Positions 68 to 57,744 of a stretch of DNA of 64,000 bases are shown one piece after another (position 1 is the stretch's first letter; every line of letters starts with the position of its first letter). The position numbers and the translations under genes were made by a program. The stretch comes from a virus, in the IMG/VR virus record IMGVR_UViG_3300042691_047309, positions 32,001-96,000 of that record; one strand, 5' to 3'. The notes beneath the pieces are model-generated. The model saw nothing but the letters and a program-made list of their open reading frames with translations, did not search any database and was not told where the DNA came from.

Positions 68-805
68 TTATATGAAATGATTTGTTACTTGTTTATCCAG
101 ATTATGTTCATTGAATATATTAATAAGACTTTTATATTCTTCATCTGAACAATTTACTAAATATAAGTTTGAGTGTATAAAAGTTATCACATCACCGTTA
201 TTTTCATCTACATAATCTTCTTTCCAGAAGCCATAAAGTGGTCTAAAATCAGTTGATTCATAAACCATTTTCAGTCTTTCTATTACCTCATCTAAATGTT
301 CGGGTAGAAATATATCAAATGTCATATAAATAAAAGGATAAGCTTTTACTACTCCTCTTTCAATATTTTCTACAAGTAATTCCTCAAAAGTTTTACCAGT
401 AACTCCAGACTTTTCAAGGTTAGTCCTTTTTTCTTCTACATCATCTAAATGTAACCACTCAACATTTCTTCTAAGAATTCCTTTATTTAGGTTTTTGACT
501 GGATCCATAAAAAAATCAGACCATTTATCTCCAAATAAATCATAAGGTTTTTCTTCATACCAATTTCTTTCTTTCCACGACATCTCGTGATAAAGGTCAG
601 ATTGAATAGTTCTATCCCATTTTTGTGGAAAGAAAAGATATCCACCGTCAATAAATTTACTCAAAGCTTCAGCACTATTATTATAGTTAAATTTAGTTAT
701 CCCATCATCTTCTAACTCTATGAAGAAATCATGTAACTCTGTATATGTTGGAAAGTGTATTTTACCAACAGACTCAAATAATTTATATGATTTTATATAC
801 TTCAT
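68..805 (-). CDS. Hypothetical protein with N-terminal capsid-targeting-like motif
   Basis: ORF begins MKYIKSYKLFES; no other recognisable domain. Confidence 0.75.
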   Translation of the reverse strand: MKYIKSYKLFESVGKIHFPTYTELHDFFIELEDDGITKFNYNNSAEALSKFIDGGYLFFPQKWDRTIQSDLYHEMSWKERNWYEEKPYDLFGDKWSDFFMDPVKNLNKGILRRNVEWLHLDDVEEKRTNLEKSGVTGKTFEELLVENIERGVVKAYPFIYMTFDIFLPEHLDEVIERLKMVYESTDFRPLYGFWKEDYVDENNGDVITFIHSNLYLVNCSDEEYKSLINIFNEHNLDKQVTNHFI

Positions 806-1641
806 TACATTTTCAATAATATTTTTAAAGTATAATCATATATCGGTCTTGAAGTGTCAAAATATCTTTCATCCCTTGAAAAGGGCCAAAGAACTTCTTC
901 ATAGTCTAATTCTGCTGTAATCAAGTCAATTCTATCATCTAATTCTTTTTCTAAGTCTAATAAACTCATTTGACCTGTTCTGTGAGAATCTACCGATGAC
1001 CAACCACCAATGTCAATTACCACACCTGGTTGATACATACTAAGAACATTTTCAGGAGAATATAATTTTAATTTTCTCATCTCATATTCTTTAAGTTCAG
1101 TAAATTCTGAGAAGTCAAAATTCTGACATTGCCACTTTTTATCTGTAACAAATTCAGATTCTGGTGCTGTTCTAAAATTGACTTCAGTATCTATCAATCT
1201 TGAACAAGATACCGTTGGTCTTACAATTTCAAAAATTATATTATGTAAAATATAACTTTTTCTTTTCATATCATCTGATTCAAAAATAGGCATAGTTCCA
1301 TTATACTTAAGCTCGTTAATATCATTTACTCTATCATAATCTCCATAAAGAACGGCACAATAAATATTCTTTTCTTTTTCATCAGGTAGAGTGTCATAGA
1401 TTTCAAGCATCGCATCTTTTATATGATTCAAATCAACTTCTGAAAGTATTTGAAACATTCTATCAACATGAGACTTTATTTTCTGCCACCAACCATCTCC
1501 TACAAAATGGTCAGTCCATCTTTCTAATTGTGATATATCATTATTTGACCAGTGATTATTTCTAAGATAATCATAGAAATCAAAAATAGAATATTCTTTT
1601 TGAGACTCTAAAAAAGATTTATATGTTTCTAATTTTTTCAT
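805..1641 (-). CDS. Hypothetical protein with N-terminal capsid-targeting-like motif
   Basis: Begins MKKLETYKSFLES; overlaps neighbours at stop/start. Confidence 0.75.
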   Translation of the reverse strand: MKKLETYKSFLESQKEYSIFDFYDYLRNNHWSNNDISQLERWTDHFVGDGWWQKIKSHVDRMFQILSEVDLNHIKDAMLEIYDTLPDEKEKNIYCAVLYGDYDRVNDINELKYNGTMPIFESDDMKRKSYILHNIIFEIVRPTVSCSRLIDTEVNFRTAPESEFVTDKKWQCQNFDFSEFTELKEYEMRKLKLYSPENVLSMYQPGVVIDIGGWSSVDSHRTGQMSLLDLEKELDDRIDLITAELDYEEVLWPFSRDERYFDTSRPIYDYTLKILLKM

Positions 1642-3344
1642 CTTAAAGTTTTTATTCTTTCTACTTGATATTTCATTATATCAACATCTTGATTTTGTTT
1701 AAGTAAATCAATTATCTTTTGATACATTTGTATTGTTATCCTACAGTCTGTAATGGCGTCGTGATAACCCATCATATTAACTCCTAAGACCGGTCCTATT
1801 TTAGCCATTGATGATGATATAAGTCCGTTATCTCTTGTAGATGTTCCTATAAAATCAATCATTTCTTTATATTTAGTATCTGTTTCAGCTAATGTTTGTA
1901 ATAGAGGTAAGAAATATAACTGAATCAACATTTTAGTATCAAATACTTCGCTTTCAATTTTGTGACCGTATCTTCCACTTAGCATTGCCATATCAAAACT
2001 CGCATTTTGAGCAACTAATATATTTGGTGAGTAATTACTAACCCATCTGAAAAAGTCATCTACTATATCTTTTTCATTTTTATATTTATAATCACCTGAT
2101 CCATAGTGATTAAACCCCAATACCCACTTAGTTTTATCCTCAGGTTGTAGAAACTTTGATTTAGTTTCATCTGTTAATTTTATCTTTTCATCAAATGTTC
2201 CTATTTCACTAAAATTGTTTGATTTGAAATCATACTGAGTTGCTATTGCAGATACTTGAGTTAATTGTTGTTGTTTTGGACCACCTAACCCAGTCGTTTC
2301 GGTGTCGCACCAGATAAACGGCAGTGTGGATTTAGATTCTAACCACTCTAATATTTCTGGTATAGTTTTATACCACATTTTATTTTCATTCAATCCTTCC
2401 TCTACCTTATCAAAATGTATATAAACTTGCTCAGATATCGTTCCTTCATTAAGTGTTTTAATTTTTGTTGAAAATCCTTCAGATTCTAAATAACTTATAG
2501 TTGCCTCAACAACAGGACTTATTTCATTCCAAAACTCATCGTGAGTTAGTCTTCTTTGATTTTTAATCCAAACATAAGGACCATGTAACCAATAGTGTTT
2601 TTTATCTTTCGGTCTTATTAAGTCAATAAATGAATTAAGTTTGGAAGGTGACTCTGTGAATCCACTGATATGTGGTCTGTATCCTAAATCTTCTAATTCT
2701 AAAAGAATATTTCTTAAATAAGATTCCAATTCCAATCTAATTGGACTAGTTGGTAGTTTCCACTCAGAGTCATATTCTATACCTTCATGTTTAATTGATT
2801 CATTTGTTTTATAGTCAAATTTAACTTTTTCACCCGATGGCATTGAGTAAGTAATCTTATCAACATTTTTTACTTCATATTTATAACCAGGATTGACATA
2901 CTTTTTACCTGTTCCCTTTTTAACATAAGCAATTGTTATGTGTGGTTTGTAATCAGGATACTGATCTGAATTAGGAAACTTAGAAAGCTCATCGTGTAAG
3001 TATTGTAAAGCACCATCCGGTTTTACATTAAACTTAACAACATCAAACTTCTCATTCTCAAAGATATCTATACCATCTACTACTATGTTTATATTGTCTG
3101 TAAAGTTATCAAATACAGATTTTACCATATCTGGAGTTACCGTATCATGAAGACCATAGAGTAAAGTAAGGTGTGGGTTATTTTGAATTCCGTATGTTGA
3201 ATCTCCTTCTTCTTCATAAATATCTTCCTCATCAATAGATGATGTTATCTCATTCCAGTTACTAACTGGGATTTCGACCATAACACATCCATATTGATAG
3301 CCTGATGACTCCTTAATAAATTGTATGTAGTTTTTGATTTTCAT
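1638..3344 (-). CDS. Fusion: 2H phosphoesterase (Acb1/T4 57B-like), middle module and DEDDh 3'-5' exonuclease
   Basis: N-tag MKIKNYIQFIKES; two HxT motifs (PHLTLLYG, PHITIAY); C-terminal CDTETTG, AQNASFD, YHDAITD. Confidence 0.75.
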   Translation of the reverse strand: MKIKNYIQFIKESSGYQYGCVMVEIPVSNWNEITSSIDEEDIYEEEGDSTYGIQNNPHLTLLYGLHDTVTPDMVKSVFDNFTDNINIVVDGIDIFENEKFDVVKFNVKPDGALQYLHDELSKFPNSDQYPDYKPHITIAYVKKGTGKKYVNPGYKYEVKNVDKITYSMPSGEKVKFDYKTNESIKHEGIEYDSEWKLPTSPIRLELESYLRNILLELEDLGYRPHISGFTESPSKLNSFIDLIRPKDKKHYWLHGPYVWIKNQRRLTHDEFWNEISPVVEATISYLESEGFSTKIKTLNEGTISEQVYIHFDKVEEGLNENKMWYKTIPEILEWLESKSTLPFIWCDTETTGLGGPKQQQLTQVSAIATQYDFKSNNFSEIGTFDEKIKLTDETKSKFLQPEDKTKWVLGFNHYGSGDYKYKNEKDIVDDFFRWVSNYSPNILVAQNASFDMAMLSGRYGHKIESEVFDTKMLIQLYFLPLLQTLAETDTKYKEMIDFIGTSTRDNGLISSSMAKIGPVLGVNMMGYHDAITDCRITIQMYQKIIDLLKQNQDVDIMKYQVERIKTLR

Positions 3345-3766
3345 TAAAATGCTCTTCGTCGTTCTTTTTTATTTTTAAATATTTCGATAAATATATAATC
3401 TCTATATTCTGAAAATTGCAATTTATAATCAGGATATTTATCTGATAATCTTTTTAGACTAACTTTGACTTCTTGTAATAACTCGTTGTTAGTGTTATGA
3501 TTTTCAATATGGTTATAAATAGAAGAATTTTGGTCACCAATAAGATTTGCTGTCTTAGCAGTTTTGTGGTCTATATCAACTATCGTTTTTAATGTAATAG
3601 TTATATATGGTTCTGTTTGATCACCCATCAACATGGAGACTGAATCTCTTTCTATTAATTTTATTTCAGCTCTCTCATCATCTAATAATTCGGCAAAACA
3701 TTGATAAACATAATCATAATCTATGTAATCATTTTCACTTTCATTAAATCTTCTTAGCCTTTTCAT
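3344..3766 (-). CDS. Hypothetical N-tagged protein, paralogue of 3803..4195
   Basis: MKRLRRFNES, IDYDYVYQCFAELLDD and ELLQEV shared with neighbour. Confidence 0.75.
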   Translation of the reverse strand: MKRLRRFNESENDYIDYDYVYQCFAELLDDERAEIKLIERDSVSMLMGDQTEPYITITLKTIVDIDHKTAKTANLIGDQNSSIYNHIENHNTNNELLQEVKVSLKRLSDKYPDYKLQFSEYRDYIFIEIFKNKKERRRAF

Positions 3767-3802: not shown

Positions 3803-4195
3803 TTAAAATGGATATTGTTCTTTTTTCTCTTCACCACCAAATATGTTAATATGAATTGAATAACCAAATATGTCAAAATTAATTTTATAAGTTGGATATT
3901 CTTCTGATAATCTATTTAAAGCAACTTCAACTTCTTGTAACAATTCGCTATTTGATTTTACGCCGTTTATGTAGTCAAATAATTTAGACCTTTCAATAGT
4001 GACAGTTCCTCCGTTATCTCTTCTTTCTGGATTAGATTGATTAATTTTCAAATCTATGGTAATATACTTTTGATAATCATTTTCAAATTCTCTAATTTGT
4101 GCTTTATTATCATCTAACAATTCAGCGAAGCACTGATAAACATAATCATAATCTATATCAATTTTACTTTCATTAAATCTTCTTAGTCTTTTCAT
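3803..4195 (-). CDS. Hypothetical N-tagged protein, paralogue of 3344..3766
   Basis: Tandem duplicate visible at protein and DNA level. Confidence 0.75.
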   Translation of the reverse strand: MKRLRRFNESKIDIDYDYVYQCFAELLDDNKAQIREFENDYQKYITIDLKINQSNPERRDNGGTVTIERSKLFDYINGVKSNSELLQEVEVALNRLSEEYPTYKINFDIFGYSIHINIFGGEEKKEQYPF

Positions 4196-4667: not shown

Positions 4668-4677
4668 TATATATTAA
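4668..4677 (-). promoter_or_regulatory. Putative late promoter TTAATATATA
   Basis: Recurrent motif just upstream of N-tagged and structural genes. Confidence 0.6.
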
Positions 4678-4916: not shown

Positions 4917-6449
4917 TTATTTAACTTTAATCTTCATCTTAGTTCCGGTTGATATCTTTTCACAACTAAGTTCAAATCCGTGCTCTTTGATAATTGCTAA
5001 ACAGATATTCAGACCAAGTCCGGCCTCTTCAATATCTTTGTGTTTAGCTTTAATAATCTTTTCAAATTGTCTTTCTGAAAGACCTCTACCATTGTCTTCT
5101 ACAACTATGTTATCTTCTTCTAAATAAATCTTGACTAATTTATTCTCACTATCATTATATTTGAGACCATTTTTAATTAAGTTGTCAACAGCATTCCAGA
5201 AAAGTGTTTCATTTGCCTCTAAAGTTGTAAGTTCTCCTAATTCAACTTGCTGATGATAAGAAGTTTTAGAAATTGAATCTTCTAATAATTGTCTGATATC
5301 AACTTCTTTCTTTTCCAAAACAACATTTTGTTTTACTAAGTTTGTAAATTCATAAACACTCTTATAAACTTTTTGAGTGTGATTTAAACCTTCTCTAATC
5401 ATTTTAACTGATCCGTCAATCTTTAGATTTTTTAACTCATCTGGAGTAATTCTTTTTTCCAAAGATGAAATTCCTCTTGGTATATAAGTATTGATTCCTG
5501 AATGCATATCGTGTCTGATTATTCTAGCAGCATGTTCTAAATAAGTATTCTTTTTATTTATGTCTTCTAATTGTCTTTCAATTTCTTTATCTTGAACTTT
5601 AATAGTTCTTCTTTGTAAAAGTGCTAATACAGAAAGTATAAGAACGGTGATTGCTAAAATAGCACCCCATAGCCAATTTTTGATAACTTGTTTCTCTTCC
5701 TTTAATGTTTCTTTGTCAATATTCAAATCAATTACTTGTTTCTCTTTCTTTAAGGATTTGATATTAACATCTTTAGCATCAATTAGGTCTTGACTGCCAT
5801 TGTTATCTATTAATTGCTTTTTTTCTTTTTGGATTTTTTCAATTTGATTATCAATTTGTTTAGAAAGATTTTCTAAATCTTCTTTTGATAAACTATTAAA
5901 TGTTTGTGGAAGATTTTTAAGAAAATCTGCATCTTTTTTAAGACTTTGTAATTCAGAAATACTCAATTCTGTTTTAGATTCTTCAGTTTTTTTCTCCAAT
6001 TTATATTCTTTTTCTAACTCATTTCTAATTTCCTTTCTAATTTGAGAAATATTATTATAGTATGAGCTATCTCTAAAAACGTCTTTTAGTCTAACTCCTT
6101 TTTTTTCAGAAAATCTTTTAATTTTAGAAAGGTAAAAGTCAGCTTCTTGATAAAGGCCTTTATTATAAAACTCTACTCCTAACTCTCTATAAAGTCTTGC
6201 TTGTTCAGTAGTTATTTTATTTACATCTTCTAATGAAGCTGGATTTAATTTATAAATTAATTCCATTATAGTCTCATCTTCCGGCAAGATAGGAACACCT
6301 TGGTCATAAACTGCCTCATATTCATTTATCTTATTGTAAATAACATTTTCAGACTTATTTTTTAATGTGTCAATATATTGATTAAAATTTATTTGAGAAA
6401 ATAAATTGCATGAGAATAAAGTTATTAAAGTTAAAAGTAGTGGTTTCAT
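4917..6449 (-). CDS. Membrane sensor histidine kinase
   Basis: Signal peptide, coiled coil, TM helix (WLWGAILAITVLILSVLALL), H-box IRHDMHS, N-box NLIKNGLKY, G1 DNGRG, G2 GLGL. Confidence 0.85.
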   Translation of the reverse strand: MKPLLLTLITLFSCNLFSQINFNQYIDTLKNKSENVIYNKINEYEAVYDQGVPILPEDETIMELIYKLNPASLEDVNKITTEQARLYRELGVEFYNKGLYQEADFYLSKIKRFSEKKGVRLKDVFRDSSYYNNISQIRKEIRNELEKEYKLEKKTEESKTELSISELQSLKKDADFLKNLPQTFNSLSKEDLENLSKQIDNQIEKIQKEKKQLIDNNGSQDLIDAKDVNIKSLKKEKQVIDLNIDKETLKEEKQVIKNWLWGAILAITVLILSVLALLQRRTIKVQDKEIERQLEDINKKNTYLEHAARIIRHDMHSGINTYIPRGISSLEKRITPDELKNLKIDGSVKMIREGLNHTQKVYKSVYEFTNLVKQNVVLEKKEVDIRQLLEDSISKTSYHQQVELGELTTLEANETLFWNAVDNLIKNGLKYNDSENKLVKIYLEEDNIVVEDNGRGLSERQFEKIIKAKHKDIEEAGLGLNICLAIIKEHGFELSCEKISTGTKMKIKVK

Positions 6450-6473: not shown

Positions 6474-6749
6474 TTAATAGAAAGTATTTTTCAACTCAAA
6501 TTCAATGTCATCATCATCACTTTTTTCAAAATCAAAATCGAATCCCATATTTACAATATATGATGCGACACAATCAACCATCATTGGATCCGCTCCTCTT
6601 TCTTCCATGTATTTCATATAGTCTTGAATAGTGAAACTACCTTTCTCATTTTTTAGTTTTTGTAATTTAGGTAAAATGTCTTTAGCGATATCTTCATGAA
6701 TATCAGAGTCTAATTTTCCGTAAGATTCAAAAGTTTTTAAATGTCTCAT
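6474..6749 (-). CDS. Hypothetical N-tagged protein
   Basis: MRHLKTFES. Confidence 0.7.
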   Translation of the reverse strand: MRHLKTFESYGKLDSDIHEDIAKDILPKLQKLKNEKGSFTIQDYMKYMEERGADPMMVDCVASYIVNMGFDFDFEKSDDDDIEFELKNTFY

Positions 6750-8833: not shown

Positions 8834-9811
8834 TTATTTTTTCTTTTTTGATTCTCCAGCAAACGGACTTAATAAATGTTTTAGATTCCAAGATGGAATA
8901 AATTTCTTATTATGTTTTTCATAGTCTTCGTATGATTCAATTCCTGAATCTACAACATTTTGATAGTATTGGATATTAGCACCTTGTTTATTTAAGTCGG
9001 ATATTCTATCTCCAATGTCAATTCCTTTGGTCATTTTTCTTAACTTATTCCATTGATCGACCGTTTGTTGTCTTGGAAGAGATTCGTTTACATAATCTAC
9101 AAAGTTTAAAATCTTAGACTCAGATAACTGACCTTTAGACATTTCAATCACCTCTTTTGATGTTGTTGTGAAATAAAGACCGTCTTTTATAAACTCATTT
9201 CTGTTTGCAATTGAAACTCCATTTTTACCAGGAAAAGCCGTTATAACAGAAAGAACTACTTTATCTCCTAATTTACCTAATTTAGCTCCAATAAAACTTA
9301 AAAAGGTAGTTTTTTCACCTTCACCCTGTTTTACTTTAATATTAAATTCATTACCTCTAGAATCTTTGTATGTATAAACATTCATAGATTTAAATTCATC
9401 TGAATTAGCATCTAACTGATGGACATTTTCAACACCAACATCTGTTTTAGAATCTAAACCTAACCATTTAAACTTTTCAGCTTCATCTGGATTTGTAACT
9501 TTTGTTTCACTTGGACCAAACCCTTTGGTCATTTCAGTTGGTTTATTATTTTTAACTAACTCAACGATTGCTTTCTTTAAATCAACTCCTTTATCAAATT
9601 TAGAACCTGGTATAGTTTCTTCAACATGTGAATCTGTTATATGAGATAAATCTCCTAATAATAGAATAAAGTCACCGGATTCATAAACTGTATCTTTATT
9701 TGCCTCAACTTTTCCTTTCAGAAATTGATTATTATCAATCATCGATTGAATTTGAGAGTATATTAATTCTTCCCCATCTTCTACATTTTCAAATAATCTT
9801 ATGTGTTTCAT
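8834..9811 (-). CDS. Hypothetical N-tagged protein with an internal second tag
   Basis: MKHIRLFEN; internal LSESKILNFVDYVNES. Confidence 0.7.
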   Translation of the reverse strand: MKHIRLFENVEDGEELIYSQIQSMIDNNQFLKGKVEANKDTVYESGDFILLLGDLSHITDSHVEETIPGSKFDKGVDLKKAIVELVKNNKPTEMTKGFGPSETKVTNPDEAEKFKWLGLDSKTDVGVENVHQLDANSDEFKSMNVYTYKDSRGNEFNIKVKQGEGEKTTFLSFIGAKLGKLGDKVVLSVITAFPGKNGVSIANRNEFIKDGLYFTTTSKEVIEMSKGQLSESKILNFVDYVNESLPRQQTVDQWNKLRKMTKGIDIGDRISDLNKQGANIQYYQNVVDSGIESYEDYEKHNKKFIPSWNLKHLLSPFAGESKKKK

Positions 9812-10242
9812 TGTTGTAATAATTCTTTTATATCATTCAAAAGTTCAGATACATCATCAAATGAACCAGAGAAAGCATATCCGTCTCCACCACAACTAAA
9901 TTCAAAAATAACTTTTGAGTTGTATTTATTTTTACCTTCAGTTCTTCTTTCATACATATCAAATTCATCTGGAATGCTTTCGTAAGTATTATCCATGTTC
10001 ATTCTTACAAAATCATCAGCAATACTTTCAGATTCTTGTTCTGATTTACCTGCTGATATAAGGCTATTGTAAACTAATGTGTTTATAATATTTTCTAATG
10101 TACTTTCAGAACCATAACTGTAACGGGCTTCAACCTTTTCGTTTAGATGGTCCTCAAATTGTTCAAGTGTTGTTTCATCAGTCACTACGAATTCTTCATC
10201 TTCGTTAGATTCAAATAACTTAAATGATTTAATATATTTCAT
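9808..10242 (-). CDS. Hypothetical acidic N-tagged protein
   Basis: MKYIKSFKLFES; TTAATATATA at 10262-10271. Confidence 0.7.
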   Translation of the reverse strand: MKYIKSFKLFESNEDEEFVVTDETTLEQFEDHLNEKVEARYSYGSESTLENIINTLVYNSLISAGKSEQESESIADDFVRMNMDNTYESIPDEFDMYERRTEGKNKYNSKVIFEFSCGGDGYAFSGSFDDVSELLNDIKELLQQ

Positions 10243-10275
10243 ATTAAAAATTAATTTTTAGTATATATTAAAAGT

Positions 10276-13783: not shown

Positions 13784-13813
13784 AAAAAACCCAGTCGATG
13801 ACTGGGTTTTTTT
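13784..13813. terminator. Bidirectional intrinsic terminator
   Basis: A6-CCCAGTC-gat-GACTGGG-T7 between convergent genes; near-identical to 34505-34534. Confidence 0.85.
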
Positions 13814-14609
13814 ATTTTTTTACCATAAAAAAGAAACTTGACGTTGATTGACCTTTGATTTCCTCTTCGACTTCTTTAACTTCTTCTTTACCTTGAGTAA
13901 CCAAGTCTGCTGCTTGAATTTTAACACCGCCTGGTAGAGTAAAGTCATATCGACCAACTAAATTTCCAAGTTGTTGTTTTGAATATCCCACTACATATTT
14001 AAAAAATAAATCATCTCTAAAAAGATTTTCCTGTGGAATATTCGCATAAGCTTCCATAATTACATCATACTTAACATTTGTCAAAATATGTATTCTGTGA
14101 TTTAGTTGATTAAATTGATATTTTAAAGTATATTTGTTAAAAACATTTAACATATCAGACATTGAATCTAATATTGTTTTATAAACTCCTAATTCTCCAA
14201 TAGTTGTTACATATGAAGAAAGATATGGTTGATTTGTAACCCCTAGATTAACTGATAAGTTTGGCGTATTTATACCTAATTGATATAAACTATCTCCTCT
14301 AACTTCATAAAGATATGTTACCGATTGAATCTCACAAGGAACATTAACAAAATTATATTTGGTAAATTCTTCTGCAAAAAATGCTTCTTTTCTAATTAAA
14401 AAATACATTTTTTGTACAGCAAATTGGTAACTACGATAAAACCAAGGAAGAGCTCTGGTCTCAATAATTTGTCTAATGTTTGCGTCAGGTAAAGTTTTAG
14501 GTAATGAACATGATATTGTTAATTCGTTCTGAACAAAATCAATTAATTCATCTATAGTATAACCACCTTGATATGGTATATATGTATCCCCTAATCCGTT
14601 AGTAGCCAT
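13812..14609 (-). CDS. Neck/head-completion protein, T4 gp13-like
   Basis: C-terminal KQQLGNLVGRYDFTLPGGVKIQAADLVTQGKEEV matches the gp13 pattern; late motif at 14629-14638. Confidence 0.7.
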   Translation of the reverse strand: MATNGLGDTYIPYQGGYTIDELIDFVQNELTISCSLPKTLPDANIRQIIETRALPWFYRSYQFAVQKMYFLIRKEAFFAEEFTKYNFVNVPCEIQSVTYLYEVRGDSLYQLGINTPNLSVNLGVTNQPYLSSYVTTIGELGVYKTILDSMSDMLNVFNKYTLKYQFNQLNHRIHILTNVKYDVIMEAYANIPQENLFRDDLFFKYVVGYSKQQLGNLVGRYDFTLPGGVKIQAADLVTQGKEEVKEVEEEIKGQSTSSFFFMVKK

Positions 14610-14628: not shown

Positions 14629-14638
14629 TATATATTAA
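14629..14638 (-). promoter_or_regulatory. Putative late promoter TTAATATATA
   Basis: Upstream of the neck gene, supporting a late assignment. Confidence 0.65.
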
Positions 14639-14674: not shown

Positions 14675-14854
14675 ATGAAAAAGGGTAAAATACACTTAGG
14701 AACTTTTACTAAATTAGACTCATTGAAAGCATCTAAGAAGGCTTCTCGTGAGATGGAATTACAAAATTCTACTGGATGGATTGCAAAACATAAAGTGCAT
14801 AAATCTGTTAAAGATTATACTCGAAAGTTAAAACACAAAAATGAAACTTTTTAA
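14675..14854 (+). CDS. Small basic protein (not in ORF track), possibly ArfA/BrfA-like
   Basis: MKKGKIHLGTFTKLDSLKASKKASREMELQNSTGWIAKHKVHKSVKDYTRKLKHKNETF, 59 aa, own promoter. Confidence 0.6.
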   Translation: MKKGKIHLGTFTKLDSLKASKKASREMELQNSTGWIAKHKVHKSVKDYTRKLKHKNETF

Positions 14855-15362: not shown

Positions 15363-15393
15363 AAAAACCTGTTCTTAATTGAACAGGTTTTTT
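15361..15393. terminator. Bidirectional intrinsic terminator
   Basis: A7-CCTGTTC-ttaatt-GAACAGG-T6. Confidence 0.75.
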
Positions 15394-15542
15394 ATCTTTA
15401 TCTTTCTTTTAAAATTCTTATGATATGATCCTGATAAGTATTCGGTATATGAAATATTTCTATCTATTTGTTCTGCTACATATTCACTATAAGCAATAGA
15501 TTCAAATAACTTCTCTTTAAGATACTCTTGATATTCTATCAT
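15375..15542 (-). CDS. Small C-tagged protein (not in ORF track)
   Basis: [55 protein letters not shown]; ATGA overlap with dnaJ stop. Confidence 0.6.
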
Positions 15543-20172: not shown

Positions 20173-20184
20173 ATGCTTTTTCCT

Positions 20185-42272: not shown

Positions 42273-42276
42273 AATA

Positions 42277-43767: not shown

Positions 43768-43846
43768 GTTGAAAATAACTTTCTATTATATATAAATTAT
43801 TATAAACAATAAACTAAAAATAGACTAAAAATAAAAACAAAATTAT

Positions 43847-45343
43847 ATGAAGAAAAAAGATATCAAAAACTTATTCTCAAAATCAGATTGGAATGAAGAA
43901 ACTATTCAAGTTTTTTCTGAAATAATTGATAAAATGTCTATAGACTTACTTGGACTTGATGTTTATGTAAATCAATTTGAAATTGTATCTTCTGAACAAT
44001 TACTAGATGCTTACGCACTTATAGGACTTCCACTTTCATATAACCATTGGAAATTTGGAAAAGATTATGTAGTAAATACAAATAATTATAAAAAAGGAAG
44101 AATGGGTCTAAGCTACGAAATGGTAATTAACAGCTCGCCCTGCATCTCTTACAACTTAGAGGACAATGATACTTGTCTTATGTTATTAGTTTATGCACAT
44201 GTTCAGGGCCATAATCACTTCTTTAAGAACAATTATCTTTTTAAACAATGGACTCAAGCTGATTCCATTATCGATTATATGTTATTTGCTAAAAACTTTA
44301 TTGCCAAATGTGAAGAGAAGTATGGATATGAAGAAGTTGAAATGGTTTTAGATGCTTGTCACGCACTTATGAACTATGGTGTTGATAAATATAAAAAACC
44401 GGCTAAATTATCACCTAAAGAAGAGCATGACAGATTAAAAAAGAAGATTGAAGACGATAGAATTTTACTTGATGACATCTGGAGAACCCTTCCTAAGGAT
44501 GATCAGAAAAGAAAAAGAAAAGAAAGATTTCCGGCTCAACCTGAAGAAAATATTCTTTACTTTATCGAAAAAAATTCACCAAAACTAAAAGCTTGGCAAA
44601 GAGAAATTGTTAGAATTGTTAGAAAGGTATCTCAATACTTTTACCCACAGGGTCAAACTAAAGTTATCAATGAGGGATGTGCGACTTTTACACACTATGA
44701 GATAGTAAATAAAATGTTTGAAGAAGGATATTTAGATGATGGATTTATGTTAGAATTTATGCACCATCATTCTAATGTTATTTTTCAACCGGGATTTGAT
44801 TCTAAATTCTATTCAGGTTTGAATCCATATACTTTAGGCTTTAATATCTTTTCTGATTTAAAAAGAATGTCATTAGATCCAACTCCAGAGGATTTACAAT
44901 GGTTTCCTGAAATTGCTGGAAAAGGAGATTGGAAAGAACAATTTTTATATATTGTTGAAAATTTCAAAGATGAAACATTTGTTCTTCAATATCTTTCTCC
45001 AAAAGTTATGCGTGATATGAGATTATTTGAGATATCAGATGAATCAACTTCTAACTTTTATAAAGTTAGTTCAATTCATAATGAAAAGGGATATAAAAAA
45101 GTTAGACAATCACTTTCTGAATTTTATAACAGAAGTAGATATGTTCCAGATATTCAAGTTTATAATGTTGATGTTTATGGAAATAGAAGTCTTACTTTAG
45201 AATACACTCCTTTAGATGGTAGAGATTTAGATTCAAATGAAGTTGATAAGGTTCTTCCACATGTTAAATACTTATGGGGATTTCCAGTTAAGATGGTTCA
45301 AAGAGGTCAAGAAAAATTGACAGTTATTTCTTCTTTGGAATAA
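43847..45343 (+). CDS. ycgB: SpoVR/YcgB family protein
   Basis: YNHWKFGK, YEMVINS, HVQGHNHFFKNN, TKVINEGCATF, NPYTLG. Confidence 0.92.
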   Translation: MKKKDIKNLFSKSDWNEETIQVFSEIIDKMSIDLLGLDVYVNQFEIVSSEQLLDAYALIGLPLSYNHWKFGKDYVVNTNNYKKGRMGLSYEMVINSSPCISYNLEDNDTCLMLLVYAHVQGHNHFFKNNYLFKQWTQADSIIDYMLFAKNFIAKCEEKYGYEEVEMVLDACHALMNYGVDKYKKPAKLSPKEEHDRLKKKIEDDRILLDDIWRTLPKDDQKRKRKERFPAQPEENILYFIEKNSPKLKAWQREIVRIVRKVSQYFYPQGQTKVINEGCATFTHYEIVNKMFEEGYLDDGFMLEFMHHHSNVIFQPGFDSKFYSGLNPYTLGFNIFSDLKRMSLDPTPEDLQWFPEIAGKGDWKEQFLYIVENFKDETFVLQYLSPKVMRDMRLFEISDESTSNFYKVSSIHNEKGYKKVRQSLSEFYNRSRYVPDIQVYNVDVYGNRSLTLEYTPLDGRDLDSNEVDKVLPHVKYLWGFPVKMVQRGQEKLTVISSLE

Positions 45344-48548: not shown

Positions 48549-48693
48549 CCCTAAATAACTTATTTATTTTGGATTTTCTATATTCTGATTTCGTATCAAA
48601 TCCTAAAATATTTTTTAATGCCCAATTTACATCTAAATGACCTGTGATCATTAACTCTTTTAAAAGTTCATATTTTTTGTTTTTATCAGACAT
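48538..48693 (-). CDS. Small C-tagged protein (not in ORF track), portal-like segment
   Basis: MSDKNKKYELLKELMITGHLDVNWALKNILGFDTKSEYRKSKINKLFRDEE. Confidence 0.55.
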   Translation of the reverse strand: MSDKNKKYELLKELMITGHLDVNWALKNILGFDTKSEYRKSKINKLFRDEE

Positions 48694-48862
48694 TAAATAA
48701 TCTTTTGATTTTTTTCTTTCTAATCTTTGGTCTATCTATTTTATAGATAATGTCAGTAATAGTTGAATTGACTGTTATATAATTACCAGAACCTCTGGTT
48801 GATTTATTATTTATCAACGCAGAGGCTTGTAGTAATTTATCAACTAAACTTTTATTAGTCAT
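48686..48862 (-). CDS. Small C-tagged protein containing a major-capsid-like fragment
   Basis: MTNKSLVDKLLQASALINNKSTRGSGNYITVNSTITDII...IRKKKIKRLFNV; start reassigned. Confidence 0.6.
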   Translation of the reverse strand: MTNKSLVDKLLQASALINNKSTRGSGNYITVNSTITDIIYKIDRPKIRKKKIKRLFNV

Positions 48863-49409
48863 TGTGTTTTTCAATCTGAAGAGCACTTAACTCAACAAGA
48901 TTTTTTCTACCAAAAATCATAACTTCAACCTTGACTTTTTGGTCTTTAATACTTTCTACTGTTCCTGTAAATCCTGTAAAAGGACCATCAAGAACTTTAA
49001 CAGATTCACCGGAAATGAAGTGGTCAAATTGTTCGGCTACTACTTCTTTTTCTTTTTGAATACCAAGCATTCTATCAACTTCTCCTTGTGTTAGAGACTG
49101 AATAGTTTTATCTCGTGATGTAAGAAATCCTGTAGCACCATTTACACCTTTTAAATAATATTTCAATTCACCAACAGCATTTGTTTCAACAAAAATATAT
49201 CCTGGATACATTACTTTTTCACGTTGAACTTTTTTACCATTCTTTAAATGAAAAGATTTTTCAGTTGGAACAATTACTCTACCTATTTTACCCATTAAGT
49301 CACCAGTTTCACCATCTTTGACAATTCTTTCCGAAACAGATCTTTCTCTGTTTGATTGCGCTCTAACGATATACCATTTCATTGTTTTAACATTTTCTAA
49401 AGTTTCCAT
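48855..49409 (-). CDS. nusG: Transcription termination/antitermination factor NusG
   Basis: KWYIVRAQS, MYPGYIFVE, KOW GESVKVLDGPFTGF, VMIFGR. Confidence 0.92.
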   Translation of the reverse strand: METLENVKTMKWYIVRAQSNRERSVSERIVKDGETGDLMGKIGRVIVPTEKSFHLKNGKKVQREKVMYPGYIFVETNAVGELKYYLKGVNGATGFLTSRDKTIQSLTQGEVDRMLGIQKEKEVVAEQFDHFISGESVKVLDGPFTGFTGTVESIKDQKVKVEVMIFGRKNLVELSALQIEKHND

Positions 49410-50828: not shown

Positions 50829-51197
50829 TTAGTTTATAATATCATCTATCTTTTTGTCCCTTTCTAACCACTTAAACTTTTTCTCTAAATAGTCTTCAAT
50901 TTCAGATGGAAAGAAAGTATTATTTTTATGTAATTCATCTAAAAAAGGTTTTCCTAAAACATTAAGTATAGCAATATTAGTTATTAAATTCGAATCTCTA
51001 TAGTGACCGTTATTTGACACTTCAACATCTTCACCTAAAATATGATAAGTTATTTTTGAAGCTCCTATTGTAAATGATGAACCATTATAAACCAAACTTG
51101 TCCCAGAAACCGTAGTCGATGTATTTGAGGATGAGCCAGTAATTGCAAAGATACCGGGAGGTATTTGTAGATTGGTTTGTTTTTTAGCCATATCCAT
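50829..51197 (-). CDS. Hypothetical C-tagged protein
   Basis: Ser/Thr-rich N-terminus; ends ERDKKIDDIIN. Confidence 0.65.
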   Translation of the reverse strand: MDMAKKQTNLQIPPGIFAITGSSSNTSTTVSGTSLVYNGSSFTIGASKITYHILGEDVEVSNNGHYRDSNLITNIAILNVLGKPFLDELHKNNTFFPSEIEDYLEKKFKWLERDKKIDDIIN

Positions 51198-51220: not shown

Positions 51221-52825
51221 TTATTTAACTATTGTGTGTGGTGCTGACCAATCCGACTCTGATTTAGCAAATCTGATAATTGATGATACTATGTGATTTC
51301 TATCATCTTCTGGTAGTCTTTCTACAAAATCTGTAAAGAAAATAGCTTGAAGTCTTGAGTTTATAGCAGAATCTTTTTCTTTTGTGAGATCGTTATAGAA
51401 TATAGTCTTCAATTCAGCTTTAGTAAATTCATAGTTTTGATCCATATACTCTTTAAGATTTTCTAAGTCTTTTGATTTTCTAATATATGTCAGTATAGTA
51501 TATGGGTTTATTGAGACATCTTTTCCAGTTATTTGTATTGTGAAGTTTTTATTTAATTCAAATTTGATAAGAGCTCCTGCTTTTCCAGACATATGCTCTG
51601 CTTTTGAAGAACCTTTAACCTCTAAAGAAATGGCTTGCTCTAATCCAGTCACAAAAGTCCTAACATCAATTTCTCCAGCTCCTTTAATTTGTGGCTCAAC
51701 TTTTTCCTCAGCCCCGTCTTCAATTAATTGACCAAGCAAAGCATAGTCATAATAAATCTTAGTTCCAGTTGTATTAGGACTTGCTTTGTATTTATTATAC
51801 ATATGTACGAATTTAGAAGCAGTGTCTGTATTAACTGGGAAAAATCCTGATTGTCTTTTAGTTTGTTGTTTTAGTGATACACCAACAACTCCAGTTGCAT
51901 TCTTAATTGATTCTCCTAAAAAGTCATTTAGTTCCTGTAAAGAAGTCACACCTAATCTTTTAAATCTTTTTTCAACAGAATTTGTACTTAAATCTCTACA
52001 AGTCCATTCATACCCTTTAAATACTAACCAACAATCCGATGGATTCCATTTTGCAATATTTATTCTATCTGGAAGTGATGTGAATGATGAAATACCTTTT
52101 GATATTTTTTCTTTTTCTTCTTTAAGTGTATTTAAGAAAAAAGTATTAACAGAATATTTTGAAGAGTTTTTATAAATTCCAGATAAATCACTGATACTGT
52201 CTTTATAAACATCAATAATCGACTGACATTGTTTTAACATACCTTCAACAATATTTACATTATCTTCTTCGTATTTTTCAAATTTTTGTTTAATATCATT
52301 TCTGTATTTACCAATAGTCGCTTTTCTATAACCATCAATACCTTGACCAAATTCAATTGGTACTCTACCATCGTGATTGTAACATTCGATTGCAATTCCA
52401 TAATCTTCCCACAATTTGAAAGTAAAAAGTATAACAAATACAGTTTCTCTAAAGTAATCACCTCTGGCTGATGCTCCTTTTCTATCTAACTGTTTAATCA
52501 TAACAGTTTTGATTCCTTTTTTAGCTACAGCAAATGGAAATTTTAATGAAGTTGTTTTATAGATAAATAATTCAGACTTAGGATCTTTGATGTCATTTAT
52601 TTTAAGCACATCTGAAAAAGTAAGTATCTTTAAAGAAGCAGGTCTTATATTGATGACTTTTTCTTCTAAATTAGGTAATTCTTCAGTATAGAATAACTGA
52701 AGTTTTGTTGTTACTTCAACATCATCTTCTTTAACTTCGGTCTTACCATCTCTTGAAAGAGCATAGTTTATATTCCTTTTATTATCATCTAAAGTAGCCT
52801 CAAATAACGACTTAATATACTTCAT
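51221..52825 (-). CDS. N-tagged protein with PD-(D/E)xK-like nuclease motifs
   Basis: MKYIKSLFEA; KWNPSDCWLV..GVSLKQ; TTAATATATA at 52832-52841. Confidence 0.55.
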   Translation of the reverse strand: MKYIKSLFEATLDDNKRNINYALSRDGKTEVKEDDVEVTTKLQLFYTEELPNLEEKVINIRPASLKILTFSDVLKINDIKDPKSELFIYKTTSLKFPFAVAKKGIKTVMIKQLDRKGASARGDYFRETVFVILFTFKLWEDYGIAIECYNHDGRVPIEFGQGIDGYRKATIGKYRNDIKQKFEKYEEDNVNIVEGMLKQCQSIIDVYKDSISDLSGIYKNSSKYSVNTFFLNTLKEEKEKISKGISSFTSLPDRINIAKWNPSDCWLVFKGYEWTCRDLSTNSVEKRFKRLGVTSLQELNDFLGESIKNATGVVGVSLKQQTKRQSGFFPVNTDTASKFVHMYNKYKASPNTTGTKIYYDYALLGQLIEDGAEEKVEPQIKGAGEIDVRTFVTGLEQAISLEVKGSSKAEHMSGKAGALIKFELNKNFTIQITGKDVSINPYTILTYIRKSKDLENLKEYMDQNYEFTKAELKTIFYNDLTKEKDSAINSRLQAIFFTDFVERLPEDDRNHIVSSIIRFAKSESDWSAPHTIVK

Positions 52826-52848
52826 ATAGAGTATATATTAATTTTTAC

Positions 52849-53370
52849 TTACAAAATCTTATTTATTTGGATTTCTCTCCAAAGAGTTCTAAATTCTTCT
52901 CTTATTTCAAAATCATAATCGTAGCAATCCTTTTGTTGATAATAATCGTAATAGCTTTTCTGAATTTTCTTATTTATCTCTTCGTACTTTGGTTTTACAA
53001 GATACCAAGCATCATTTTTCTCTGACCAATCTATTAGATTTTTAATTAAGTCAAAGTTTATTTTTTTAAATCCATTAAGGAATTTAGGATTAGCCCACGA
53101 ATAAAAGTAACTTCTTATTATCTCATTCTTGAAATCAAAAAATCCAGATGGATTGGTAGATAGTGGTGTAGTGAAGTAAAACTCTTCACAACTCCTCATA
53201 AGTATTTTAGTTAATTCTATTACTTTTTTAGGTAATTTATTTTCTAAAATAATATGAGGCACATCATCTATTAAAATACAAATTGGAATCTTTTGAATTT
53301 TTTTGAAATATATTATTCCTTTTGAAAAGGACCAATCTTCATTACTCGGTAGTATTTTATTTAAGTCCAT
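52849..53370 (-). CDS. Hypothetical C-tagged protein
   Basis: Ends WREIQINKIL. Confidence 0.65.
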   Translation of the reverse strand: MDLNKILPSNEDWSFSKGIIYFKKIQKIPICILIDDVPHIILENKLPKKVIELTKILMRSCEEFYFTTPLSTNPSGFFDFKNEIIRSYFYSWANPKFLNGFKKINFDLIKNLIDWSEKNDAWYLVKPKYEEINKKIQKSYYDYYQQKDCYDYDFEIREEFRTLWREIQINKIL

Positions 53371-53700: not shown

Positions 53701-53973
53701 TTATTTTAGAATTTCAGAAATCTTCTCATCTCTATCTATTGAATAAGTATCTATAATGAAAATTGGACTACCATCTATTCTTGACCTACTTATAAACTTA
53801 GCCCAGTATTTCTGACCAAAGTATTTTTTATCAATAAGGTTTTTTCTTACCGTTTCATCTTCAGAACTCCAATCGTATCGATGATTTAAGTCATCAATAA
53901 TTTCAAAAGATTTGTCGAAACAAATAAGTTGGTCTTTGGATTCTAAACCAATTTTTTTTATTAGAATTGTCAT
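53701..53973 (-). CDS. Hypothetical C-tagged protein
   Basis: Start reassigned to MTILIKK (ATGA overlap with topoisomerase stop); ends DRDEKISEILK. Confidence 0.6.
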   Translation of the reverse strand: MTILIKKIGLESKDQLICFDKSFEIIDDLNHRYDWSSEDETVRKNLIDKKYFGQKYWAKFISRSRIDGSPIFIIDTYSIDRDEKISEILK

Positions 53974-55814
53974 TTCAGTAATTCTACTTTTCTTAAGTCT
54001 GAATTCTTTCCAAACCAAGTTTCAAGTGATGATTTTGAAGCCTCATCTTTTGTAATCATTGTCATTCTTGGCGAATTAATGATATCTTGATACTCATCAT
54101 CGACAAGAGCTGCCAAACCTTTCTTATACTTAATCTCGTATTGTTTTGGATCATTCTTACTTTCCCATTCATTGTATTCGGTCTGTGAGTAAAAAAGAAT
54201 TTTCTTTTTACCCTTTTGTTTTGGAATGGCAACAACAATCGGAGTTTCTACTTTCCAAATCATTTTCCTGTCAAACATATCTGGCCAATATTTATGAAAG
54301 AAGTTAATAAGAAGTCCCGCGATGGAATTCCCATCGACATCAGCATCTACATAAAAAAGTATTCGACCATATCTTAAAGATTTTAAATCAATTTCTTGAC
54401 CTAACTTCAGTCCAATTGCCGCCATCAAATTAACCACTTCATCATTTCCAACCAGTTTTTGATTAGTCATCTCAGATACATTAACAAACTTTCCTTTAAG
54501 TGCAAAAGCACCCATCGTCTCCGGAGTCCTGTATTTTCTAAAAGCTGAAATAGCGGAGTCTCCCTCGAATAATCCAATGGAACATTTCCAACGATCTTTT
54601 CCTTTAGCATCAATTAGTTTTTCAACTTTGATTTTAGATAACTTTTTATTTAATTCTCTTTGAAGTTTTGAGTCTTCAGCACTTTTCTTTTGTTGAATCC
54701 AGTCTAAAATAGAATTGACAATCTCAGATTTAAGAATAGATTGGATTAATTTATTTGGAACCTCATAAGTTGAACCAAAGTCTTTAACTTCTGTAATTAG
54801 TTTCTCTTTTGTTTGAGAAGAAAATGATGGATTAATTATAGTAGAATCTAAGAAAAGAAACATATGTTGTTTTAACTCTGAGGGTTTAACATCAACTTTG
54901 TGTTTTTTCATAAAGAATTCTCTTAGAGATACTACTATTTGATTCATAATATAATCAACGTGTGTTCCTCCATCATAAGTTTCTGTTGAGTTAGCAAAAC
55001 TAACTTGTTGAAATCCATTTTCGGAAAGAGCAATTGCAAATGACCAGTTTTTATCTTTTGATGTTTCATAGAAATAATCTTTGACATATAATTTTATGTA
55101 ATCTTCAAATGAATTGAAATTTATCAAATTCCCATTAAATGTGAATTTGATACTTGGGTTTGTTCCTGCTAAATCATAAACTCTTTTCTCTAACATTTTG
55201 AAATGATCATTATCTATTTTAGACAATCCAAACTGAGATAGGTCTGGTTTATATTTTATTTCTGTGTGATTTGACTTTGACTTTTTAACAATTGGATTAT
55301 TCCTATCTCTCATATTGTTTTTGAATGTTTGTGTAAAATGATTCTTACCATCACATGTAGAGATAGTGAATTCGACAGAGAAGACATTAGTAAGCTTTGC
55401 GCCTAGTCCATTTAAACCAGCTACTGTTCTCTCATCACTGTCATCATAATTACTACCCGACATTAAATTACCAAATATAACTTCTGGGACATATTGATCA
55501 TGTTCTTTGTGAATCACAACCGGTATCCCTCCATTATCTTTAACCGTTATCAAATTATTTTCAGTATCAACAACAACATCTATTTTATTTAAACTTTTGT
55601 TTCTTTTGTGTTCATCAACTGAATTTGTAACAACTTCGTCAAATATTTTAACAAATGATGGTATATATGTTATTTCTCTTTGTAAGATTTTATTATCATC
55701 TATTATGTTTTTAACAGAGGTATTGGGTTTATTCGAACCAACATATGTCTGTGGTCTGAGTAAGATATGTGTTATTTGATCTAATACTTTATACTTATCT
55801 TCTATTTTTTTCAC
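53970..55814 (-). CDS. Type II DNA topoisomerase ATPase/TOPRIM subunit (T4 gp39+60 / GyrB-like)
   Basis: HILLRPQTYVG, FDEVVTNSVD, DNGGIP, GLNGLGAK, EGDSA, DADVDG, KGL. Confidence 0.92.
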   Translation of the reverse strand: MKKIEDKYKVLDQITHILLRPQTYVGSNKPNTSVKNIIDDNKILQREITYIPSFVKIFDEVVTNSVDEHKRNKSLNKIDVVVDTENNLITVKDNGGIPVVIHKEHDQYVPEVIFGNLMSGSNYDDSDERTVAGLNGLGAKLTNVFSVEFTISTCDGKNHFTQTFKNNMRDRNNPIVKKSKSNHTEIKYKPDLSQFGLSKIDNDHFKMLEKRVYDLAGTNPSIKFTFNGNLINFNSFEDYIKLYVKDYFYETSKDKNWSFAIALSENGFQQVSFANSTETYDGGTHVDYIMNQIVVSLREFFMKKHKVDVKPSELKQHMFLFLDSTIINPSFSSQTKEKLITEVKDFGSTYEVPNKLIQSILKSEIVNSILDWIQQKKSAEDSKLQRELNKKLSKIKVEKLIDAKGKDRWKCSIGLFEGDSAISAFRKYRTPETMGAFALKGKFVNVSEMTNQKLVGNDEVVNLMAAIGLKLGQEIDLKSLRYGRILFYVDADVDGNSIAGLLINFFHKYWPDMFDRKMIWKVETPIVVAIPKQKGKKKILFYSQTEYNEWESKNDPKQYEIKYKKGLAALVDDEYQDIINSPRMTMITKDEASKSSLETWFGKNSDLRKVELLK

Positions 55815-56949: not shown

Positions 56950-57048
56950 AACTAATGGTTCCGTTTTTACTTATATATTAAATAAAAAAGATATAATTTA
57001 TCCATAGTAGATTTAGTTTGTGATTGAAAGAAAGTATTTGTTTATTTC

Positions 57049-57744
57049 CTACATTGATTCAACATCATCCCAATTATCTTCTCCTTTTAAAGGAATACGA
57101 GGATTTACATCAAAATTTTGATTTAAAAATTGCTTTAATTCATTTTCGATATAATTATCTGGAACAACCATATCTGGATTTTCCAAACTCATTTTTTTAG
57201 ACAATTCAAATGAGAATTGTTGAAGAACTTCTGGTCTAATTGCAGCTACTAATCTATCCGATACAACAAATGCTCTTGTGAATCTATCTTTAACAGGTAT
57301 TTCTCCTTCAGCCACTTTCATTGAGCTATCTATAAAGCTTTTTAGAAAACCCTCATAACTATGTGATGAATCTTGTAAAATAGGTGCTAATATTTTATTA
57401 AAAGCTCTTGTAGATCCAAAAATCATTCCAAATATTGCTGCTATTGGAAAGAATGGAGCAAGAGCCATTGGAACTATTCTATGAATAGCTTTAACTATTC
57501 CAACTTTCAAGTCTGTTCTCTTTTTAGCTGTTTGTGCATCTAGGAATAAAGCTCTTAGCATCCCAAATTTAATTTGTTTATCTTGTGTTTTTAAATAATC
57601 AGCCAAGTGACCTCTGTGTGCAAAATAAAGATGACGATTGATTTCATCTTCGTCAGTTATGCCAAGTCTTTGTAATTCGGCTTTGAAATTATCATCAAAT
57701 TTCTCTAATATAAGGAACTGATTATACCTATTAATTTTTTTCAT
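57049..57744 (-). CDS. Hypothetical N-tagged protein with a hydrophobic segment
   Basis: MKKINRYNQFLILEK; TTAATATATA at 57750-57759. Confidence 0.65.
   Translation of the reverse strand: MKKINRYNQFLILEKFDDNFKAELQRLGITDEDEINRHLYFAHRGHLADYLKTQDKQIKFGMLRALFLDAQTAKKRTDLKVGIVKAIHRIVPMALAPFFPIAAIFGMIFGSTRAFNKILAPILQDSSHSYEGFLKSFIDSSMKVAEGEIPVKDRFTRAFVVSDRLVAAIRPEVLQQFSFELSKKMSLENPDMVVPDNYIENELKQFLNQNFDVNPRIPLKGEDNWDDVESM

Follow-up and report, generated by a model that had tools for sequence, protein, structure and literature searches.

The window examined here, a stretch of 64,000 nucleotides spanning bases 32001–96000 of a linear IMG/VR viral contig (record IMGVR_UViG_3300042691_047309; 175,894 bp, 29% G+C), raises the question why so many of its genes open with one and the same short peptide. 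This N-terminal tag has 9–13 residues and reads roughly M-[KR]-x-[IL]-[KR]-x-[YF]-(x-x-F)-x-E-[SNE]; it occurs in a long form (M-K-x-[IL]-K-x-[YF]-x-x-F-x-E-S, e.g. MKYIKSYKLFES) and a short form (M-K-x-[IL]-K-x-F-x-E-S). Our analysis indicates that the peptide is very probably a genuine address tag that acts at the level of the protein. As for the address, the tag resembles the capsid-targeting sequence (CTS) of phage T4, and we put the probability that the capsid is the destination at roughly one in two.

Tagged open reading frames (ORFs) were identified with a profile hidden Markov model built from 44 curated tags, using a threshold of at least 12 bits. The threshold was passed by 28 ORFs of the window, about one third of its genes, and one further ORF (59581-60924) scored marginally at 8.0 bits. 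The initial annotation of this DNA, which had listed about 30 tagged ORFs with their coordinates, was thereby borne out; the regular expression in which it had cast the motif was too strict and fits only three ORFs of the contig. A count over the whole contig, which the same annotation had proposed as a check, was made with the profile and gave 44–45 tagged ORFs out of 251. The threshold was reached by none of 825 peptides starting at an internal Met, by 1 of 8000 random internal 20-mers and by none of 5020 N-termini in which residues 2–16 had been shuffled, a background rate of about 0–0.01%. Two genomes that are independent of the profile training were scored as well: 61 of 372 ORFs are tagged in G005 (an IMG/VR record of 242 kb) and 114 of 975 in LR745206 (a complete uncultured phage of 634,780 bp), the latter number rising to 145 at 8 bits. 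Across the genomes the tagged share is 12–19% of the ORFs, to be compared with about 4 of the ∼280 genes of T4, and the claim of a scale far beyond that of T4 is upheld.

To relate the tag to the CTS, the T4 genome was rebuilt and every ATG-started frame (802 first-ATG ORFs) was scored with the tag profile of this contig. The four highest-scoring ORFs were gp61.1 (MKTFKEFIKE...) and the internal proteins (IPs) IPI, IPIII and IPII; the three ip genes are annotated as internal virion proteins. Both ipII and ipIII begin with MKTYQEFIAE, the start that had been quoted for IPIII at the outset, and the string KTYQEFI.E, said to occur verbatim in the window protein 34756-35238 (minus strand), is indeed present there, the N-terminus reading MKIKKTYQEFIKES. 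In T4 the first 10 residues of IPIII suffice for incorporation into the head; residues 4 and 7 are the main determinants of targeting, residues 8 and 10 are needed for processing, and the protease gp21 cleaves after L/I-x-E (PMC9026906). The best-conserved positions of the present tag are [IL]4, [YF]7 and F10, hydrophobic or aromatic residues three apart, which are followed by Glu. A hydrophobic-x-E site at residues 7–22, mostly 8–12, was found in 89 of 105 tags (85%), against 182 of 506 untagged N-termini (36%). The P3 residue in the tags is F (30), I (24) or L (22), and P1' is mostly Ser; the frequent Phe at P3 departs from the gp21 consensus.

The likeness to the T4 CTS thus comprises a short peptide placed at the very start of proteins that are otherwise unrelated, a Met-Lys start, two aromatic or hydrophobic residues three apart and a hydrophobic-x-Glu end, and one window protein itself carries the T4 string. 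The differences are that most tags have an extra basic turn at the N-terminus (MKx[IL]K) or a shortened end (F-x-E), and that 28 proteins are tagged in the window and 114–145 in LR745206, compared with three IPs and one look-alike in T4. Beyond the tag, no similarity to the bodies of the T4 IPs was found when T4 and LR745206 were compared with phmmer. The look-alike gp61.1 (L050:18966-19130, minus strand), a hypothetical protein of 54 aa with the start MKTFKEFIKED, is the best match to the tag in T4 and may be an unrecognised CTS-bearing protein.

Several properties show at what level the tag is maintained. Ser is encoded in the tags by TCN or AGT and Leu by TTA, CTA or CTT, while both codons are in use for each of Tyr, Phe and Glu; this synonymous variation indicates selection at the peptide level. 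The position is equally strict. A profile without the Met gave 43 matches in LR745206, all 43 of them N-terminal and none elsewhere in 201,625 residues; the matches sit at residue 2, or just after an in-frame Met near the 5' end, and the apparent internal matches of a blind scan were mis-called starts. When the first 20 residues were removed, the 44 tagged proteins of the contig fell into 37 families (blastp, E<1e-3), which supports the earlier statement that the tag is found on diverse enzymes and proteins of unknown function. About 80% of the tagged proteins have no Pfam assignment, and most bodies are orphans. Where Pfam recognises an enzyme, the domain begins after the tag: in the window this applies to a 2H phosphoesterase with an exonuclease, a pterin dehydratase and an Asp/Glu racemase, and elsewhere on the contig to a CCA/polyA-type nucleotidyltransferase and a class III nucleotide cyclase. 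Analysis of ten large tagged proteins with PADLOC turned up only the DEDDh exonuclease domain. In two unrelated proteins (24108-24935 and 29176-29478) residues 6–21 (TYTLFERVSNETKLFE) are identical and the DNA is near-identical (24108-24170 and 29176-29238), which suggests a recently grafted or transferred double leader with two F-E sites.

The tag also outlasts the proteins behind it. Median identity to LR745206 is 49% for tagged and 60% for other genes of this contig (p = 0.005), and 59% and 75%, respectively, for those of G005 (p = 1e-4); the tag is nevertheless kept in 16 of 22 and 35 of 41 LR745206 orthologues. Among homologues shared by this contig and G005, bodies have diverged down to 23–36% identity with the tag still in place. 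More than 200 close metagenomic homologues of 34756-35238 keep the tag too, although at 72–99% identity they are too close to contrast tag and body strongly. In principle, a shared start could be mere inheritance within one large paralogous family and carry no signal. Some neighbouring genes are indeed paralogous, and the tagged bodies include four small families of 2–4 members each. The 37 families among 44 proteins, the tag as an N-terminal extension on unrelated Pfam enzyme families, its retention on diverging bodies and the lower identity of the tagged genes to their LR745206 homologues all speak against such an origin, which we consider very improbable; paralogy alone was rejected as the main explanation because of the 37 unrelated bodies and the retention of the tag. 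Variable, fast-evolving genes that keep their tag fit the T4 IP loci, which are reported to be poorly conserved, possibly through host-phage arms races (PMC9026906).

The tagged bodies are acidic, with a median isoelectric point (pI) of 4.8 compared with 6.1 for untagged proteins (p = 1e-19) and with 88% below pI 6; a net negative stretch follows directly after the tag. AlphaFold2 gave models of too low a quality for fold searches, with a mean predicted local distance difference test score of 37 for 34756-35238 (24-sequence alignment) and of 46 for 9808-10242 (sequence alone). The 28 tagged ORFs of the window are as follows, together with two related features; the late box given for some of them is the motif TAATATATA, which is taken up below.

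68-805, minus strand: MKYIKSYKLFES, orphan of 245 aa; 22.8 bits, no Pfam match; in an operon behind the late box at 4668-4676
805-1641, minus strand: MKKLETYKSFLES, orphan of 278 aa
1638-3344, minus strand: MKIKNYIQFIKES, 568 aa; 2H phosphoesterase and DEDDh/RNase T exonuclease (PF13563, PF00929, PF23474 below cut-off; PADLOC DEDDh)
3344-3766, minus strand: MKRLRRFNES, 140 aa; paralogue of 3803-4195
3803-4195, minus strand: MKRLRRFNES, 130 aa
4195-4662, minus strand: MRFLKSYKLFES, 155 aa; late box TAATATATA at 4668-4676, 5 nt ahead of the ATG
6474-6749, minus strand: short form MRHLKTFES, 91 aa
6763-8829, minus strand: MKLFRYNQFTNLHPLNE, 688 aa from the ATG at 8829; the longest frame starts from a TTG at 8862
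8834-9811, minus strand: MKHIRLFEN, 325 aa
9808-10242, minus strand: MKYIKSFKLFES, 144 aa; late box at 10262-10270, 19 nt upstream
13812-14609, minus strand: neck or head-tail adaptor protein, untagged (phrog_211); late box at 14629-14637, 19 nt upstream
15375-15542, minus strand: mini-ORF of 55 aa with 2–3 scaffold-type repeats and a C-terminal tag; blastp match to the repeats in the protease-scaffold of the relatives
23299-24111, plus strand: MKIKKYIEFISEE, 270 aa; late box 5 nt upstream; heads an array of 11 tagged genes on the plus strand
24108-24935, plus strand: MKYLKTYTLFER..KLFE, orphan of 275 aa
24932-25702, plus strand: MRYLKTYKLFES, 256 aa
25699-26124, plus strand: MRKLKTYQNFNES, 141 aa
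26121-27407, plus strand: MKKLKTYKRFLES, 428 aa
27411-27839, plus strand: MKFLKPYTKFNEG, 142 aa; late box at 27398-27406, 4 nt upstream
27843-28316, plus strand: MRHLKSYKLFES, 157 aa; late box at 27830-27838, 4 nt upstream
28313-29179, plus strand: MKYLRRINES with a GTG start, 288 aa
29176-29478, plus strand: MKRIKTYTLFER..KLFES, pterin-4a-carbinolamine dehydratase of 100 aa; domain from residue 18 (PF01329, 4.6e-26)
29465-30238, plus strand: MKWLKTYETFRP, Asp/Glu racemase of 257 aa (PF01177); tag without a hydrophobic-x-E site
30242-31012, plus strand: MRYLKKYKVFEN, 256 aa; late box 4 nt upstream
31009-31293, minus strand: MKFLKKFEN, 94 aa; late box 4 nt upstream
34756-35238, minus strand: MKIKKTYQEFIKES, 160 aa; carries the T4 CTS string KTYQEFI.E
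35241-36482, minus strand: MKVFKYSDFLTES, 413 aa; late box at 36488-36496
38345-38896, minus strand: MKIRKFFQFINEE, 183 aa; late box at 38901-38909
42277-43767, minus strand: MKYIKTYESFR, 496 aa; antisense within a PrkA-DUF444-SpoVR cluster
51221-52825, minus strand: MKYIKSLFEA, 534 aa; late box at 52832-52840
57049-57744, minus strand: MKKINRYNQFLILE, 231 aa; late box at 57750-57758

The protein encoded at 1638-3344 has a 2'-5' RNA ligase superfamily domain with a weak match, below cut-off, to Acb1, which acts against the cyclic oligonucleotide-based antiphage signalling system. It may serve to degrade cyclic-nucleotide signals or RNA.

The motif TAATATATA is not in excess on the contig (32 copies versus ∼30 expected from base composition) and only its placement is non-random, 22 of the 32 copies being located 4–14 nt before the start of an ORF. 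It precedes the neck gene by 19 nt and the baseplate operon by ∼20 nt. Upstream of the G005 genes for portal, protease-scaffold, capsid, peptidase and terminase, the box or its core ATATATA is found at a distance of 19–31 nt, and in both G005 and LR745206 a gene for a gp55-like late sigma factor (phrog_234) adjoins the head module. Because of its position before head genes and the late sigma factor of the relatives, we read the box (T)AATATATA as a probable late promoter; the tagged proteins would then be made as proheads assemble. An exact box within 25 nt was found for 18 of 45 tagged and 12 of 206 untagged genes of this contig (p = 3e-8) and for 34 of 72 tagged and 29 of 300 untagged genes of G005 (p = 5e-12); in LR745206 the core ATATATA within 31 nt precedes 55 of 114 tagged and 165 of 861 untagged genes (p = 1e-10). 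When tight co-directional operons behind a box are included, all 28 tagged genes of the window and all 44 of the contig are covered, compared with 118 of 206 untagged ones. The initial annotation had placed most tagged genes behind a motif shared with the neck gene, and in the window this proved true of every one.

The spacing of the box shows two classes of one promoter: 4–6 nt before the start in many tagged genes and 19–31 nt in structural genes. A box only 4–6 nt from the ATG implies leaderless or near-leaderless mRNAs, and this close spacing in many tagged genes is a difference from T4. One could then ask whether the tag is an expression element, i.e. a 5' coding sequence suited to near-leaderless late mRNAs in a host that does not use Shine-Dalgarno sequences, the peptide itself being without function. 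The spacing is 4–6 nt in 15 of 18 (this contig) and 23 of 34 (G005) tagged genes with a box within 25 nt, most genes with that spacing are tagged (15 of 20 and 23 of 35, respectively), and the tag codons are A/T-rich, all of which would agree with an expression element. However, half of the tagged genes are operon-internal and have no box of their own, and the 4–6-nt spacing is also seen on untagged genes, including those for signal-peptide and structural proteins. The amino acids are conserved in spite of synonymous variation (Ser as TCN or AGT), and no signal is left when residues 2–16 are shuffled at constant composition (0 of 5020). At the RNA level there is no rationale for the Glu-Ser end or for the spacing of the aromatic residues. 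A leader acting as RNA was rejected as the main explanation on the basis of the amino-acid conservation and the shuffle control, and we judge it improbable.

A second tag was found at the other end of the proteins. The C-terminal motif R-x-x-K-[IL]-x-x-[IL]-[LF] ends 32 of 251 ORFs on the contig and 106 of 975 in LR745206, compared with 1 match in 3294 internal windows; it resembles a short basic amphipathic helix. The two tags coincide on none of the ORFs of the contig and on two of LR745206, and a late box precedes only 1 of 32 and 5 of 106 of the C-tagged ORFs, respectively. Since the two classes are disjoint and differ in their promoters, the view of the N-terminal tag as the mark of a specific late fate is strengthened. 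Ten ORFs of the window carry the C-terminal motif, and 22 more are found on the contig:

14841-15362: C-terminal motif
16932-17480: C-terminal motif
20173-20613: C-terminal motif
20613-21038: C-terminal motif
48686-48886: C-terminal motif
50829-51197: C-terminal motif
52849-53370: C-terminal motif
53701-54018: C-terminal motif
60963-61340: C-terminal motif
63062-63391: C-terminal motif

Identity to LR745206, which is among the huge-phage genomes of Al-Shayeb et al. 2020, amounts to 71% for the topoisomerase II of the contig and to 86% for its neck protein (13812-14609, minus strand). The contig is most likely a fragment of a Mahaphage-type genome that would measure ∼600 kb in the intact state. 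The completeness of 73% assigned by CheckV to this contig (176 kb) is misleading, because head genes are missing and the neck protein is 86% identical to that of a 634-kb genome; the value for G005 is 89%. The portal protein of G005 is 92.5% identical to that of LR745206, only 19 proteins are common to G005 and this contig, and the two are probably non-overlapping fragments of ∼600-kb genomes. T4-type genes on the contig encode the topoisomerase II, the neck protein, a gp6-like baseplate wedge protein and a gp32-like single-stranded DNA-binding protein. By phmmer, 31 T4 ORFs have homologues in LR745206, which holds the T4 superfamily core set of gp20, gp23, gp17, gp18, gp43, gp41, gp44, gp46/47, UvsX and gp39/52; by this gene content the clade is assigned to the T4 superfamily of phages.

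An ORF of ∼700 aa with a weak Peptidase_S77 match is present in four of five large tag-carrying IMG/VR records. Its G005 version is flanked by the genes for a T4-type portal (phrog_213) and for the major head protein (phrog_138), and it matches phrog_207 (head maturation protease) at 1.6e-30. It encodes a protease-scaffold fusion: the protease domain is followed by about ten 14-residue repeats, N-I-A-Y-S-E-Y-[LI]-A-E-N-L-D-K, and then by a very acidic segment. The same gene in LR745206 specifies 707 aa with 10 repeats of Y-S-E-Y-[LI]-A-E, and its homologues show a weak PF03420 match; by tblastn it matches jumbo-phage genes annotated as prohead core scaffold and protease, and also many records of T4-like cyanophages and Campylobacter phages. 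The relatives thus resemble T4 in having a gp21-type protease, a scaffold, a gp20-type portal, a gp23-type capsid protein and a gp55-like late sigma factor, and from these close relatives we infer a protease and scaffold for the present phage itself. By eye, the repeat Y-S-E-Y-I-A-E resembles Y-Q-E-F-I-A-E of T4, and it supplies serial L/I-x-E sites. That the tag corresponds to one unit of the scaffold is nothing beyond a hint, as the blind profile scan misses the repeats and a sub-motif is all they share with the tag.

Loading into the capsid would proceed as follows. The tagged proteins would be made late from the (T)AATATATA promoters, alongside the head proteins. The basic, aromatic and amphipathic tag would dock the cargo into the scaffolding core of the prohead, where the T4-type protease, fused to the scaffold in this clade, would cut after the hydrophobic-x-Glu that ends the tag. 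The freed, mostly acidic bodies would remain in the head and would probably be delivered with the DNA at the next infection. Docking, cleavage at the Glu, retention in the virion and injection are all put forward here as predicted steps. The proposal made in the initial annotation is partly supported, in that the peptide is portable, strictly N-terminal, maintained at the peptide level and similar to the CTS, ends in a gp21-type motif and belongs to the probable late class. The cargo is strongly acidic, unlike the T4 IPs.

A number of observations weigh against the capsid as destination. The cargo is strongly acidic, and T4-type internal proteins are described as basic (PMC9026906); the IP family proper, i.e. 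small basic DNA-associated proteins, is not matched by the tagged bodies, which also include ordinary enzymes. The 114–145 cargo species per genome would go far beyond any known virion, and the Glu racemase and pterin dehydratase are housekeeping-like, with no obvious use on injection. Of the 105 tags examined, 15% have no hydrophobic-x-E site; the scaffold repeats were not detected by the tag profile in the blind scan; and with a promoter just 4–6 nt from the ATG, a role of the tag in expression is conceivable. Searches with PHROGs and PF03420 (gp21) found no capsid, portal, protease or scaffold genes on the contig. Counts of the tag pattern relative to the control showed no excess in the cultured distant relatives PTm1 (4/2), MA9V-2 (3/3) and PAU (4/3) or in the megaphage Lak-A1 (12/7), compared with 92/6 in LR745206. 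The tag-bearing clade has no cultured member, and our literature searches yielded work on T4, phiKZ and SPN3US but no virion proteome or N-terminomics for the clade and no paper on this tag in huge phages.

The tag could also be a sorting or recognition peptide with a destination other than the capsid, acting as a membrane-binding amphipathic helix, as a handle for DnaK/DnaJ/GrpE or as a site for a modifying or processing enzyme. It is a basic, aromatic amphipathic 12-mer followed by an acidic stretch, a composition that Hsp70-binding and membrane-binding peptides generally have. Hsp70, DnaJ and GrpE are encoded in the window, Hsp70 beside the tagged array; the disjoint C-terminal tag class suggests general addressing and not only head loading; and the cargo is acidic, unlike the T4 IPs. 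We nevertheless regard such a destination as possible but less likely than the capsid, since the tag profile recovers the three capsid-targeted proteins of T4, the tag ends in the head-protease motif, all tagged genes are in the promoter class of the head genes and no candidate partner enzyme was identified.

Loading into the capsid by a short tag may be compared with two known systems. The heads of phiKZ and SPN3US contain ∼50 different proteins, with ejection proteins present in large mass, and a gp21-related protease trims several of them after Glu (PMC5694885, PMC7411985). These giant phages resemble the candidate system in their many head proteins and differ in that their propeptides are mostly long (>100 residues), have no common short tag and are cleaved at A/S/G-x-E. 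One short tag is common to all candidates in the present case, and the cargo list could therefore be read from the sequence.

In encapsulins, a short terminal peptide suffices to load diverse enzymes into an HK97-fold shell; as a rule these peptides are located at the C-terminus, and they attach directly to the shell protein and stay uncleaved. Compared by description, encapsulins would have the short terminal loading peptide in common with the proposed system and would differ from it in the terminus used, the binding to the shell and the cleavage.

Other genes of the window deserve mention. The phage encodes an Hsp70 (DnaK; 31421-33304, plus strand), whose gene directly adjoins the array of 11 tagged genes, and a DnaJ/GrpE set (15539-16618 and 17473-17940, both minus strand). 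The full trio of PrkA, DUF444 (YeaH-like) and SpoVR is phage-encoded at 38988-45343, and the tagged orphan of 496 aa (42277-43767, minus strand) sits antisense between DUF444 and SpoVR. A NusG-like protein with NusG N-terminal and KOW domains is encoded at 48855-49409 (minus strand). The ORF 4917-6449 (minus strand) has a late box 5 nt ahead of its ATG; its product of 510 aa carries a lipoprotein or signal peptide in the style of Bacteroidota (MKPLLLTLITLFSC) and, at the C-terminal end, an HATPase_c domain. Signal peptides are also found on other late, near-leaderless, untagged genes of the relatives.

A more far-reaching and quite tentative proposal is that megaphages of the Mahaphage type sort about one quarter of their proteome by two disjoint tags. 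The N-terminal tag, on late proteins, would load more than 100 different, mostly acidic proteins into the capsid for injection, including enzymes that degrade nucleotide signals, repair tRNA or act as cyclases, and the C-terminal tag, which is not late, would send ∼100 others elsewhere. If so, the injected proteome of an uncultured virus would be readable from its genome.

Should the tag function as the CTS does in T4, sequence alone would suffice to list what the virions of uncultured megaphages carry as cargo. The payload would be the largest and most varied protein payload of any known phage, present before phage gene expression, with the Acb1-like phosphoesterase-exonuclease fusion, the CCA-adding enzyme and the nucleotide cyclase as candidate members. 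The CTS principle would then be older than the divergence of T4 from the largest phages known, the tags would form a natural library for the engineering of protein delivery, and most of the orphan genes behind the size of these genomes would acquire a functional context that they share. Even with a destination other than the capsid, a strictly N-terminal tag on 12–19% of the proteome and an exclusive C-terminal tag on 11–13% would amount to a sorting system that has not been described before.

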